NCBI GenBank assembly: GCA_964016885.1 | Contig: OZ024740.1 | Location: forward strand, 193,130,001 to 193,194,000 | Direction of reading: 5' to 3' | Length of the DNA stretch: 64,000 nucleotides | Source of the DNA: Eledone cirrhosa | Taxonomy: Eukaryota | Shown: one piece after another, positions 848-63,193 of the stretch | How the letters are laid out: each line of letters starts with the position of its first letter | How positions within the stretch are numbered: the first letter of the stretch is position 1 | Position numbers and translations under genes: made by a program | Notes under the pieces: generated by a model | Told to the model about the DNA's origin: nothing | Database searches by the model: none | The model's input: the letters and a program-made list of their open reading frames with translations, nothing else

Positions 848-1173
848 TAGTGACGAAACATAAGTCAATTGCATGAACTCATAATCCTTTATTTACTGCT
901 ATATATATTTAGATGATAGCCATTGAATGGCTATGACCTCATCAGACAGTTAGTCAGTTCTTAGATATGGCCAGCTCTCTGTGAATAGTGTTGATGGTAT
1001 CAGAGCCTTGGGACATATCTGATACCATCAACACTATACACACAGAGCTGGTATATTTAAGAACTGACTAACTGCCTGATGAGGTCATATCCATTCAATG
1101 GCTATCATCGAAATAAATATAGCAGTAAATAAAGGATTAAGAGTTCATGCAATTGACTTATGTTCCGTCACTA
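848..1173. mobile_element. fold-back (palindromic) non-autonomous element with an HHR in each arm
   Basis: About 155-bp inverted arms around a 13-nt loop, next to (TA)n. HHRs at 895-950 (-) and 1071-1126 (+). Confidence 0.85.
1071..1126 (+). ncRNA. type I hammerhead ribozyme
   Basis: actgc-CTGATGA-stem II hairpin-GAAA-ta(a/t)ata-TA-gcagt. Stem I is actgc/gcagt. Confidence 0.8.
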
Positions 1174-1622
1174 TTATAACTCCGGAACTTATATATTCGT
1201 TGAGTGCTCCACATCCGCATACTGAAGCACTGGATTTTACCGACACTTACTTTCTTGCTTATATATACATATATATATTAACATCTTTGAATATATCAGG
1301 AACTTCCACATATATATATATATATATATATATATATATATATATATATATATATATATATATATATATATATATATATATATATATATGTATATATAGA
1401 TAAATGTATATATATATATGTATATATATATATATGTATATATATATATATATATATATATATATATATATATATATATATATATATATATATATATATA
1501 TATGTATATATATATATATATGTATATATATATATGTATATATCTATATATATGTATATGTATGTATATATATATATATATATATATATATATATATATA
1601 TATATATATATATATATATATC

Positions 1623-58392: not shown

Positions 58393-60990
58393 TATATATA
58401 TATATATATATATATACACATACATATACATATATATATATATATATATATATATATATATATATATATATATGTATGTGTATATATATGTATACACACA
58501 TATATATATATATGTATTTGTGTATGTATGTGTATATATGTATGTATATGATTGTGTGGGCAGGTGTGTGTGTATATATATATATATATATATATATATA
58601 TATATATATATATATATATATATGTGTATGTGTATGTATATATGTATATGTGTGTATATATATATATATATATATATATATATATATATATATGTATATA
58701 TATATGTATATGTATGTATATATATGTACATATGTATATATATGTATATATATGTGTATGTGTGTGTATTTGTATGTATACATGTATATGCGTGTATGTG
58801 TGTGTGTGTGTATGTATTATATGAATGTGAGTATATATATATATATATATATGTGTATATGTATGTATATATACATATATATATATATATATATGTGTGT
58901 ATATGTATGTATATGTATATATATATATATATGTATATGTATGTGTATGTGTGTGTATGGTATGTGTGTATATATATATATATATATATATATATATATA
59001 TATATATATATATGTGCATGAGATAGATAGTGTGTGTGTATATATATTTTGTGTGTCGGTGTGTGTATGTGTGTATGCGCGCGTGTGTGTGTATATGTGT
59101 ATATATATGTATGTGTATATGTATATGTATGTATGTGTATATATGTATATATTTATATATATGTGTATGTATGTGTATATATATATGTATATGTGTGTAT
59201 ATATATATGTATGTATATGTATATATATATGTATATATGTGTATGTATATGTGTGTGTATATGTGCGTTATATGTCTGTATATATATGTGTATATTTATG
59301 TATAGGTCTGTGTATGTATGTGTATGTTTTGTGTATGTATGGATATATATATATATATATATATATATATGTGTTTGTATATGTGTGTGTATAGATATAT
59401 ATATATATATATATATATATATATATGTATGTATGTGTATGTATATGTATGTATATATATGTGTATATATATATGTATATATATATATATATATATATAT
59501 GTGTATGTGTGTGTATATATATATATATATGTGTGTATGTGTGTGTGTATAGATATTTATACATATGTATACTCGTGTTTGTTTGTATGCGTGTGAGTGT
59601 ATTCATTTGTGTATATATATGTGTGTGTGTGTGTATGTATGTGTATGTGTGTGTGTATCTGTGTGTGTGTGTATATATATATATATATATATATATACAT
59701 ATATATATATATGTATATATATATGTATATATATATATACGTATATATATGTGTGTGTGTGTATGTGTGTATATTTATACATATGTATACTCGTGTTTGT
59801 TTGTATGCGTGTGAGTGTATTTATTTGTGTATATATATGTGTGTGTGTGTGTATGTATGTGTATGTGTGTGTATCTGTGTGTGTGTATATATATATATAT
59901 ATATATATATATATATATATATATATATATATGTATATATATATATATATATATATGTATATATATACGTATATATGTGTGTGTGTGTGTATGTGTGTGT
60001 ATGTATATTTGTATGTATATATATGTATGTATGTTTGTATATGTATGTATATATGTATGTATATATATGTATATATATGTGAATATATATATATATATAT
60101 ATATGTATATGTGCGTATGTATATGTCTATGTGTATTATATATGTATGTATGTATGTATGTGTGTATGTATGTGTGTGTACATGAATATATATATATATA
60201 TATATATATATTTATTTATATATTTTTTATATATGTGTGTGTGTTTTTATGTGAGTATATGTGTTTGTGTGTGTGTTTATGGTTGCGCGTAAGTGTGTGA
60301 GTGAGTATGTGTGTTTTTTTGTTTTTTATGTGTGTTTTTTTGTTTTTCTGTTTTTTTGTTTTTTTTGTTTTTTTGTTTTTTTGTGAATGTGTCTGTTGAT
60401 TTTGGCATATTGTTGATTAGTTTAAGAGAAGTTCGAAGATAATAGTAAGATATGCACTCAGTATTTTGAATCTGTCTGCAGAATTCTCTAGACCTTTGTC
60501 ACTTAGTAGAACCTTAATGACTTTAGCTTTTAAAGAATCTCCCTTTTCTTTAATTCTATGGAGCATGACTGACCCCCCCACTGATTTTATAGACATCTGT
60601 TAGCTTAAGAGAAACTTATTGACAAGGAATGGTATGCCATCCGGAACCTGTTTATAGAATTCTGTCTGCCTTTGTCACTCTAAAAACATAAATAAATATA
60701 AATAAAAATAAAAATTAACTATAGCTTTGTAGAATTAGCTTTTAATGAATTCCCTTTTCTATCAACCAATGACCTGCACCCATCCCACTCCCCACCCTCT
60801 CCTACCACTTGTAAATACCATATTTATTTTTTGATACCCAGATTCCTGATGATTTCTAATGAATGAAACAGTTCTAGTCCTGTAGAATCTCATCTATATT
60901 AAAACTAAATATATATATATATATATATATATATATATATATATATATATATATATATATATATATATATATATATATATATATATATAT

Positions 60991-63193
60991 AATTGACATG
61001 AGCGGAACAAGCAAACATTAAACAATTTTTAAATAAAAAAAAATATGATTTAAATATTCACCTGTCCAAAATGCTGTTACTGACGGTTTCGCTTCACAAA
61101 AGATTGGAAATTTTAATTTATTTAAAAGATTTTTAATGTTTGCTTGTTCCGCTCATCTCAATTTTATAGTTCTGGTATCTCAAATTAATACCATTGAAAA
61201 ACAAATGCATTATAGACACCCTATATATTTCCGTGGGTACTTAGTACCTGTGGGGATATCAATCTCATTTTATGTATATTCTCCCATGTGTGTAGAGGAA
61301 AAAACGTTGGCCCTTGCTGCTATTTTAAGTGGCGTGGCAAATAATACGTCTCTAATATTCCCGCTTTTACTAACGAACACTTTATGTGTGGGTCAATTTA
61401 ACGGCCAGCTCTCATACTATCTGGCAGTAAGCGATATATTTACAAACTGTGAAACTTTACGTCCTATAGAATGGAAATAGCTCTCTGAAGAGCTGATATT
61501 TACGTTGGAAATTCTCTGGATTTCCAATTTTTTGTGAAGCGAAACCATCGGTAATAGCATTTTGGGCAGGTGGATACTTAAATCGTATTGTAATTCATTT
61601 AAAAGATTGCTTAATGTTTGCTTGTTCCGCTCATCTCAATTTTATAGTTCTGGTATCTCAAATTAATACCATTGAACAACAAATGTATTATAGACACCCT
61701 ATATATTTCCGTGGGTACTTAGTACCTGCGGGGATATTAATCTCATTATATATATATATTAATAAAAGGAATTTCAACGTTGTCTGATCTACTCGTTTTA
61801 TCTACAATCCTTTAAAATTACAATGATATTATAATGAAATAGTATGGTAGAATGTAAAATGTTAAATGTTAATAGAACAAGAACTTTCATGCTTTCGCAA
61901 TCTTCAGGTTCATATTCAGTGGTGACTATCAAGTTGGCAATTTTCAACTGTGACAGCTGAAGATTGCGAAAGCATGAACGTACTTGTTCAATTAACATTT
62001 AAGATTTTATATTCTACCATACTATTTCATTATAATGTCATTAACATTTTAAAGTATTATTAAATAAAACGAGTAAATTAAACAAAGCTGGAATTCCTTT
62101 TATTAATATAATCTTCTATACACAATCACACACACCCGTGTATATATATATATATATATATATATATATATATATAAAAACAACAGATTAAAGTTTATGC
62201 AAAGTATCGCTGCTTTCACACTTAACGGAATCTTCTTTATATTTTGGTCTTCACATCTATTGTTATTAATATATATATATATGTGTGTGTATATATATAT
62301 ATATATATATATATATATATATATATATATATATATATATACACACACACACACACATATATATATATATATATATATATATATATATATATATATATAT
62401 ATATATATATATATATATATATACATATATATATATTAGTAACAATAAATGTGAACACCAAAATATAAAGAAGATCCCGTTAAGTGTGAAAGCAGCGATA
62501 CTTTGCATAAACTTTAATCTGCTTATGTATATATATACACGGGTGTGTATGTTTGTGTATAGAAGATTATATTAATAAAAGGAATTCCAGCTTTGTTTAA
62601 TCTACTCGTTTTATTTACAATACTTTAAAATGTTAATGACATTATAAGGAAATAGTATGGTAGAATATAAAATGTTAAATGTTAATTGAACAAGTACGTT
62701 CATGCTTTCGCAATCTTCAGCTGTCACAGTTGAAAATTGCCAACTTGATTGTCACCACTGAATATGAACCTGAAGATTGCGAAAGCATGAAAGTTCTTGT
62801 TCTATTAATATTTAACATTTTATGTTCTATCATACTATTTCATTATAATATCATTGTAATGTTAAATGATTGTAAATAAACCGAGTAGATCAGACAAATT
62901 TGGAATTCCTTTTATTAATATATATATATATATAATGAGATTAATATCCCCACAGGTATTAAGTATCCACGGAAATATATAGGGTGTCTATAATACATTT
63001 GTTGTTCAATGGTATTAATTTGAGATACCAGAACTATAAAATTGAGATGAGCGGAACAACCAAACATTGAGCAATCTTTTAAATGAATTACAATACGATT
63101 TAAATATCCACCTGCCCAAAATGCTATTACTGACGGTTTCGCTTCACAAAAGATTGGAAATCCAGAGAATTTCCAACGTAAATATCAGCTCTA
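60991..63193. mobile_element. nested composite of HHR elements forming a 1.7-kb palindrome
   Basis: 61490-63193 is an inverted repeat around a microsatellite, with inner palindromes at 61757-62108 and 62570-62920. HHRs at 61480-61558 (+) and 62766-62802 (+, with mirror copies). Confidence 0.85.

Follow-up and report, generated by a model that had tools for sequence, protein, structure and literature searches.

Almost all Hydra families of Penelope-like elements (PLEs) insert in (TA)n and carry hammerhead ribozymes (HHRs), and the octopus family Hydra-1_Obim is listed with (TA)n (PMC8557442). Hence, the pairing of hammerheads with TA repeats is already in print. In vitro, the tail of a PLE insertion corresponds to the distance between two reverse transcriptase (RT) start sites (PMC11167929). 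Here, we analysed 64,000 nucleotides (nt) of Eledone cirrhosa DNA (GCA_964016885.1, contig OZ024740.1, positions 193,130,001 to 193,194,000), referred to below as the window. An initial annotation had described type I HHRs from many families, set in short non-coding modules bounded by (TA)n. We conclude that these modules are very probably 3′ ends of PLEs of Hydra and Neptune type, cut short on the 5′ side and in many cases inverted, together with three retrozymes likely copied by PLE enzymes; both strands of a TA tract would have been primed on one RNA.

We searched the window with a scored descriptor in the order stem I-CUGANGA-stem II-GAAA-stem III-UH-stem I. At a score of at least 8, this returned 25 intact type I hammerheads with a CUGANGA core, compared with 0.10±0.32 (maximum 2) in 200 local dinucleotide shuffles that kept the TA tracts. 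Raw CUGANGA strings numbered 50 in the window and 22.6±4.5 in shuffles. Three more motifs, at 7312, 29727 and 29835, have a U3:A8 core (UUGANAA; shuffled mean 0.25). These are the CGTACG and CCGG motifs of the initial annotation, whose CUGANGA core thus describes 25 of the 28 intact motifs but not these three. A further 15 degenerate copies were found by homology. The totals of 28 intact and 15 degenerate motifs agree with the "about 30" first reported, and the expected excess over shuffled sequence is clear for both cores. A stricter descriptor, which allowed neither long loops nor a mismatched stem II base, recovered only 13 motifs. No convincing G3:C8 or A3:U8 core was seen in the window. 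Among the 150 of 273 Rfam matches listed, mostly chance microRNA matches on simple repeats, a hammerhead model (HH9) was reached only by five motifs of a 466-nt repeat, at 36.5-36.8 bits and under the gathering score of 52. We take the type I motifs of the window to be genuine, with self-cutting as a prediction.

The 28 intact motifs form 13 clusters, or 19 when degenerate families are counted. More than 15 unrelated families had been proposed; the number stands with degenerate families included, but several families are related. Similarity is 70-74% between the two CTAG families and 73-80% between the two CCGG families, and the motifs at 1070 and 38635 share one cluster. Stem III is perfectly palindromic in 16 of 28 intact motifs, in line with the earlier description, and one family (three copies) has a true 4-bp stem III with an 8-nt loop. 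In several families (49710-49762, 54437 and 60840; loci L011 and L030) the base of stem II is a U.U or A.A mismatch, not the usual G10.1-C11.1. The L011 and L030 copies belong to a tandem family of ~310 nt.

Covariation across copies, also anticipated by the initial annotation, was present in two aligned families and in stem II of the 466-nt unit. Both family counts are inflated by relatedness, shuffle control included: in the clade of the motif at 4194 (18 members collected by homology), 95.8% of cells were paired, compared with 36-54% in slid controls, two-sided changes occurred at 7 of 20 pairs and 0 of 500 shuffles reached the covariation score; in the 60840 family (14 members), 94.0% were paired, with two-sided changes at 2 of 13 pairs and an A-U/C-G swap in stem I of five copies. 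Two junction chimeras (L103) were excluded from the 4194-clade alignment. RNAalifold recovered stem II of this clade with covariation and shifted the register of stem I; the named fold was counted instead. Four common variants lie inside the motif of the 466-nt unit. In stem II, a compensatory A-U to U-A change occurs in all three sequence runs examined, which are labelled as three organisms. Of the other variants, one alters a loop and one affects the cleavage base in a tolerated way. Covarying stems and very high motif numbers could mean that the host has retained the ribozymes for a use of its own, for example in transcript processing or as regulatory circular RNA. However, the covariation lies between element subfamilies, the motifs occupy a fixed place within mobile elements and copies decay (15 of 43 in the window are degenerate). 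We consider a host function very unlikely.

A (TA)n tract of at least 12 nt lies within 300 nt 3′ of the cleavage site for 23 of 28 motifs, compared with 33% of random positions. The remaining five are inner units of tandem arrays, and the array end is in TA. We also sampled 400 kb of the 3.0-Gb genome, as forty stretches of 10 kb each, taken from large contigs at round coordinates. There, 44 of 57 motifs have (TA)n within the same distance downstream, compared with 18% expected. The link is polar. Over 81 motifs from window and sample, a tract falls within 300 nt on the 3′ side in 66 and on the 5′ side in 32, and the median distance is 145 nt downstream and 392 nt upstream. Hence, the TA enrichment first claimed for both ends is strong at the 3′ end but weaker at the 5′ end. 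The window is 33% GC, and (TA)n makes up 7.5% of it compared with 4.3% of the sample.

Self-comparison showed that many TA-bounded modules are unequal inverted repeats. All five non-tandem families that we tried to trace, four with motifs and a fifth with a broken core, led to a PLE bearing an open reading frame (ORF). The TGCGCA family forms the pseudo-long terminal repeats (pLTRs) that flank an RT and endonuclease (EN) frame in locus L107. In the window it has left two-armed, Hydra-type 3′ ends at 5028..5463 (HHRs 5065-5135 on the minus strand and 5265-5335 on the plus strand) and 53875..54285 (54000-54070 minus, 54180-54250 plus). In L101 and L102, the CCGG family closes the 3′ untranslated region (UTR) that follows a GIY-YIG frame; its window copies are a two-armed Neptune-type 3′ end at 29594..29948 (U3:A8 HHRs 29727-29772 minus and 29835-29880 plus) and a smaller stub at 31344-31522. 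The 60840 family is ordered pLTR-tail-758-aa ORF-UTR-HHR-TA in L267, and lies downstream of an ORF in 5/5 loci examined. The other traced families, P1 and that of the element at 15235-19321, are described below with their window copies.

The 60840 family is represented in the window by a single Hydra-type insertion, 54355..60908 (plus strand). On the left are an inverted arm with tail (HHR 54437-54487, minus) and an EN-coding part (54716-55581). On the right, TA/TG low-complexity DNA (~55760-60300) is followed by the 3′ end (HHR 60840-60890, plus). The 3′ end of an older subfamily lies at 49264..49779 (plus; HHR 49712-49762), and stubs related to it occupy 45129-45245 and 45374-45517. P1 is represented by a relic, probably of Hydra type, at 45646..48179 (plus), with broken RT/EN at 45742-46951 followed by a 3′ UTR. 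An HHR-shaped fold with a fixed C3.A8 mismatch sits at 47976-48093, and the long end is in (TA)n. About eight P1 stubs in the window match the end of this relic, and P1 also lies behind an EN-coding frame. They include a 3′ stub with inverted arm and tail at 6636..6839, which the whole core does not fit, and copies at 4887-4967, 6901-7025, 12345-12547, 25009-25129, 25717-25874 and 25947-26363. Finally, the Neptune-type element 15235..19321 (minus) has broken RT and GIY-YIG frames (16292-18549), a 3′ end with tail at 15235 and an inverted arm at 18662-19321; many intact 784-aa copies exist elsewhere in the genome.

The initial annotation had taken the modules for non-autonomous partners and truncations of PLEs, to be linked to RT copies. 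That link is now made for five non-tandem families. Truncation or inversion stands for all of them; three tandem units, of 466, 522 and 440 nt, appear to be the true non-autonomous candidates. Most other modules read as truncated or inverted 3′ ends of ORF-bearing PLEs, not as separate non-autonomous elements. Near-perfect inverted repeats with TA on both sides are frequent among the modules, which is also how DNA transposons of miniature inverted-repeat (MITE) or foldback type with TA target duplications would look, hammerheads then being there by chance. Tc1/mariner-type elements do insert at TA. However, the arms are unequal, the tail is one-sided, the centre varies between copies, many copies have a single arm and these ends also run on into RT/EN frames. 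For the five families that lead into PLE frames, a DNA transposon origin is refuted, and we give it almost no credence overall.

Clades were assigned from protein motifs. Pfam RVT_1 and GIY-YIG domains were matched in the window element 15235-19321 and in L053. Hydra-type L099 gave a weak GIY-YIG match (E 0.019) and no RVT_1 match; YRDD was seen by eye. The L099 and L107 frames carry the RW, DKT and CxCX5C motifs that define Hydra (PMC8557442). P1 is 33-39% identical to L099. L053 has DKG and a CX4CxxC linker; this linker is also in L101, and Nematis has it as well. By these motifs, L099 and L107 are of Hydra type, as P1 probably is, and L053 and L101 are placed as Neptune type by motifs that Nematis partly shares. 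The pLTR or tandem layout, the inverted 5′-truncated copy and the one-sided tail are all present (L107, L267, L268 and end maps). The first proposal, that several PLE lineages targeting (TA)n gave rise to the modules, thus gains support: five families trace to Hydra- and Neptune-type PLEs whose 3′ ends are followed by TA. A further, more distant PLE-like RT/GIY-YIG family was noticed at L104:6006-8563 and L267:7419-8885; in L267 it lies behind two CTAG-family motifs 421 nt apart.

The 60840-family unit in L267 measures ~5 kb because of internal simple repeats in its 3′ UTR, and so exceeds the <3 kb that is a general tendency, not a rule, of Hydra elements (PMC8557442). TA/TG repeats occupy 1.5-2.2 kb of this UTR in 5/5 loci (L263-L267). 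The window copy is longer and holds a nested fold-back, 57787..58391 (HHR 58131-58177, plus; degenerate 57926-58003, minus). Other PLE ends insert into such tracts, and the element may therefore spread its own target.

The ends of the insertions follow a simple rule. In each of seven families, there are two fixed sites downstream of the ribozyme, separated by 33-120 nt, at which the 3′ ends lie, and 5′ ends are scattered. TA follows the 3′ end in 37/43, 51/52, 30/36 and 27/27 arms of four PLE families. The arms point outward; opposite-strand motif pairs of the same family are divergent in 15 of 15 cases, from 10 insertions. Two-armed PLE insertions have one short and one long end in 39 of 39 cases (13/13 TGCGCA, 17/17 CCGG, 6/6 60840 family, 3/3 Neptune); at 5028..5463, for example, the left is the short end and the right the long end. 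The retrozymes behave likewise in 30 of 31 cases (13/13 for the 466-nt, 10/10 for the 522-nt and 7/8 for the 440-nt unit). In total, 69 of 70 two-armed insertions have one end of each kind, and the retrozymes therefore carry the PLE insertion footprint. P1 was excluded from this count, as its reference contains a TA run and an internal hairpin that produce spurious arms. Also excluded were repeated loci of a single insertion, L250 because it nearly duplicates L249, L230 because the locus edge cuts it, two 522-nt pairs in which an end is non-standard (L203, L206) and two convergent neighbours (L204, L212).

The two arms might instead derive from two independent RNAs or from two successive insertions. 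Elements do pile up within the same TA tracts, and in vitro the two strands did not differ in their use of start sites (PMC11167929). However, independent choice predicts that half of all pairs should be like-ended, and one in 70 was. Two separate RNAs are thus an unlikely source, and we favour one RNA primed twice. No description of the PLE footprint on retrozymes was found in the main texts of PMC7229834 and 10.64898/2026.07.22.740005, or among the papers listed by literature searches. The words "inverted" and "tail" are absent from the main text of the former; in the latter "tail" is absent and "inverted" occurs only within a reference title.

Of 11 start sites of Hydra-type elements or retrozymes, 6 have a bulged hairpin (YUC, inner stem, 2-nt bulge, GAR) at 7-13 nt behind them; both sites of the 522-nt unit are among these. 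The hairpin was seen at 0/3 sites of Neptune type, and 80 of 15,292 background windows contain it. Because the pattern was defined by eye, after the fact and from the same sites, we treat it only as a lead. Examples can be seen in L267, L107, L157 and at 1623-2145 of the window.

The 466-, 522- and 440-nt units are non-coding and tandem, and two or more consecutive units each carry a type I HHR. By sequence, they qualify as non-LTR retrozymes; circular RNA is a prediction for the units found here. The 522-nt array of the window (1621..3005, minus; 2.7 units) ends 3′ in (TA)n and has HHRs at 1681-1764, 2203-2286 and, degenerate, 2721-2828, with stem III CTAATTAG. The 440-nt array (19590..21178) joins 2.7 minus-strand units to 0.9 plus-strand unit, with HHRs at 19728-19777, 20168-20217 and, degenerate, 20944-21024. 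The 466-nt retrozyme (31541..33874) stands back to back, with 2.8 units on the minus strand and 2.2 on the plus strand. Its five HHRs are identical (31766, 32232 and 32698 minus; 33074 and 33540 plus), and its outer ends, both in (TA)n, fall at the two fixed sites of the family. Exact 30-mer matches number 2,604 for the 466-nt unit and 1,579 for the 440-nt unit. Arrays of the former reach at least 31 units: at G000:C1:5738328-5752442 (L173-L197, L231), one arm has at least 31 units and the other 0.7 unit, with one short and one long end. In the end maps, solitary arms exceeding one unit wrap round the monomer. Folded as a circle, the 466-nt monomer gave -158.9 against -93.8±5.5 kcal/mol.

Such units could be ordinary satellites, derived from PLE pLTRs and amplified by local unequal crossing-over, which would neither form an RNA circle nor move by themselves. 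Li et al. proposed local amplification from PLE termini (10.64898/2026.07.22.740005), and arrays of 31 units and more fit that idea. Conversely, the units are widely dispersed, every locus shows a separate two-ended TA footprint, and the arms run round the monomer. PLE-frame matches occur in 6/45 and 7/19 such loci and were not seen joined to the unit in the end maps. We regard the satellite explanation as quite improbable, and copying by a PLE as the better account of these units.

Two lineages have lost an intact core. C3.A8 and GCAA changes would be expected to abolish ribozyme activity, in line with the C3/G8 mutants of PMC11167929. In P1, the C3.A8 mismatch is present in 24 of 26 copies within a full-size hammerhead fold that has a stable 5-bp stem III (window 47976-48093 and 26025-26142). 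Short inverted P1 copies were seen to duplicate the stem III hairpin. In the young Neptune family of 15235-19321, GCAA replaces GAAA in all 16 pattern-matched copies (L268-L270 among them), some of which adjoin 784-aa frames that share 99.6-100% identity with L053. Its remnants, at 15366-15445 (minus) and 19150-19230 (plus) in the window, have a U3:A8 core, and the related CCGG family keeps GAAA. Because these core-breaking changes are fixed, cleavage is probably dispensable for two successful PLE lineages. Consistent with this, C3/G8 ribozyme mutants insert normally in vitro (PMC11167929), and Naiads are without canonical hammerheads. That P1 is the commonest family genome-wide was considered but not borne out; strict tags gave 0-2 matches in 400 kb, compared with 4-5 in the window.

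We propose that a GIY-YIG endonuclease would cut both strands of a TA tract. Each DNA end would serve as a primer on the same RNA, at one of two internal start sites, with the RT probably dimeric, and the two cDNAs would be linked to each other at random 5′ points. Copies extend across the cleavage site; hence, their template must be uncleaved, multimeric or re-ligated (circular) RNA. As back-to-back motifs lie on opposite strands, one transcript would carry one motif only. For retrozymes, the most likely template would be a ribozyme-cut, ligated circle copied by rolling reverse transcription. The circle is favoured because arms exceed one unit at solitary loci and the 466-nt monomer is strongly self-paired; a linear multimer may serve instead. 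For PLEs, ribozyme cleavage is likely optional. A fuller version adds that a PLE ribonucleoprotein, probably an RT dimer, finds its two sites by hairpins, that retrozymes mimic these sites, that the TA/TG-bearing UTR makes the system self-feeding and that some of the most successful autonomous lineages can dispense with the ribozyme. This is tentative; we find it plausible but lean slightly against it holding as a whole. If true, a self-feeding loop would have built the most hammerhead-dense animal genome among the genomes compared.

Several points weigh against our account. Both ends of one 440-nt insertion are long, and in two 522-nt pairs an end is non-standard. The hairpin shared with Hydra-type elements was seen in the 522-nt unit and not in the 466- and 440-nt units. 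The 5′ ends of 466-nt arms do not cluster at the cleavage site (~169), the nearest of 31 junction ends being at 173; this spread is compatible with an uncleaved or circular template and gives no positive sign of cleavage. Long arrays could stem from unequal crossing-over. Cleavage, transcript and circle are predicted for these motifs from DNA alone, and eight of nine Xenopus retrozyme dimers were without cleavage (10.64898/2026.07.22.740005). A PLE enzyme is a likely mobiliser of each retrozyme, as a candidate only. The Hydra and Neptune clades were placed by motifs, not by a tree. Finally, eight of the 13 intact-motif clusters (the three tandem units included) and the degenerate singletons have no ORF link; for the five non-tandem clusters among them, no search was made.

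The sample allows the scale to be estimated. It holds 41 C-core and 16 U-core motifs (bootstrap 25-59 and 9-24), compared with 0.75 and 0.65 in shuffles. Extrapolated, this is ~300,000 C-core motifs (190,000-440,000) in the genome and ~400,000 with the U-core. Genome-wide abundance, as first suggested, is thus borne out at ~3-4 x 10^5 motifs by extrapolation from 400 kb. Motif density in the window is 3.8x that of the sample. By comparison, and with other descriptors, ~9,000 motifs were counted in X. tropicalis and ~3,300 in S. mansoni (PMC4209133); up to 120,000 retrozymes were reported for the 28-Gb axolotl genome, again with another descriptor. With a repeat library that may take in some adjacent DNA and lacks families not yet seen, 10-12% of the sample is assigned to ribozyme-family ends and 3% to PLE frames, ~15% together; the figure for the window is 35%. 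That such elements explain much of the unannotated DNA is fair in so far as their share is large, ~10-15% of the sample, but overstated if most of that DNA was meant.

Other modules complete the inventory of hammerheads in the window. A fold-back at 850..1171, with its left end in (TA)n, has an intact HHR (1070-1127, plus) and a degenerate one (894-951, minus). The module at 38512..38748 (plus; HHR 38635-38697) is akin to it. The 4194 clade, with its stem II covariation, is represented by a short module between TA tracts at 4153..4334 (minus; HHR 4194-4258). A module at 7056..7409 (plus) has a U3:A8-core HHR (7312-7359) with stem III CGTACG. The long fold-back at 13214..15172 carries HHRs at 13363-13481 (minus) and 15018-15136 (plus) with a long stem II and stem III CACGTG. 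The CTAG motif at 44852-44894, in a module at 44640..45104 (plus), is akin to the HHR of the 466-nt retrozyme. Compound fold-backs at 60991..63194 have HHRs at 61873-61913 (minus) and 62764-62804 (plus), and degenerate ones at 61957-62007 (plus), 62670-62720 (minus) and 61472-61576 (plus). A degenerate HHR of a further family lies at 142..244 (plus), and other degenerate singletons at 4435-4552 and 30619-30703 (both minus). Fold-backs at 6223-6602 and 43209-43360 showed no hammerhead, and one at 49792-50348 has degenerate cores akin to the 58131 family. By eye and self-BLAST, decayed LINE-like stretches (~8280-9330 and 41000-42600) and two related mariner-like relics (39960-40440 and 21840-22300) were also noted. 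A SINE-like repeat has two copies (12900-13110 and 43595-43740) and may resemble cephalopod SINEs.

For specialists, the two-end footprint on retrozymes, the dead cores of successful lineages, the repeat-carrying UTR and the sheer number of motifs deserve attention. Two questions can now be put to the test on defined RNAs. The first is which enzyme moves animal retrozymes, given that three of them here carry the PLE footprint. The second is how the inverted arm and tail of PLE insertions arise, given that 69 of 70 use one of each start site. There is also a consequence for repeat annotation. Roughly a tenth to a seventh of the sample consists of PLE ends, retrozymes and frames that resemble MITEs, satellites and microsatellites, and ribozymes are absent from the main text of a recent octopus repeat annotation (PMC13282606).

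Compared with known systems, the window most resembles the hammerheads of PLE pLTRs (PMC4209133). Both have type I motifs in many families per genome, mostly as single motifs of truncated PLEs, with opposite-strand pairs 100-700 bp apart, palindromic helix III, the U3-A8 variant and covariation. Unlike that survey, which used different descriptors and counted ~3,300-9,000 motifs, we estimate ~3-4 x 10^5; (TA)n targets and the two-end rule are not among the topics of its passages compared here. The elements match EN+ Hydra and Neptune PLEs (PMC8557442) in RWK, DKT and CxCX5C motifs (Hydra), the CX2-5CxxC linker (Neptune), HHRs, (TA)n insertion and an inverted 5′-truncated copy with a tail at one end. 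They differ from that source by tails of 33-120 nt rather than 30-40, by one ~5-kb family with a TA/TG-bearing UTR where <3 kb is given for Hydra, and by two lineages with fixed broken cores. The tandem units share with animal non-LTR retrozymes (PMC7229834; 10.64898/2026.07.22.740005) low-GC, non-coding repeats with one HHR per unit, a highly self-paired monomer and PLEs as proposed mobilisers. Circular RNA was shown there, whereas our evidence is DNA; conversely, the PLE footprint is read directly here. The Poseidon PLE of Anolis, studied in vitro (PMC11167929), belongs to another clade with sites 30-40 nt apart, and the one-of-each rule is not among its passages compared. Even so, two internal RT start sites set its tail, HHR cleavage is unneeded, both AT-rich strands are cut and extended, and a dimer is predicted. 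We conclude that the window is a dense instance of a known system, with new families of Hydra- and Neptune-type PLEs and retrozymes.

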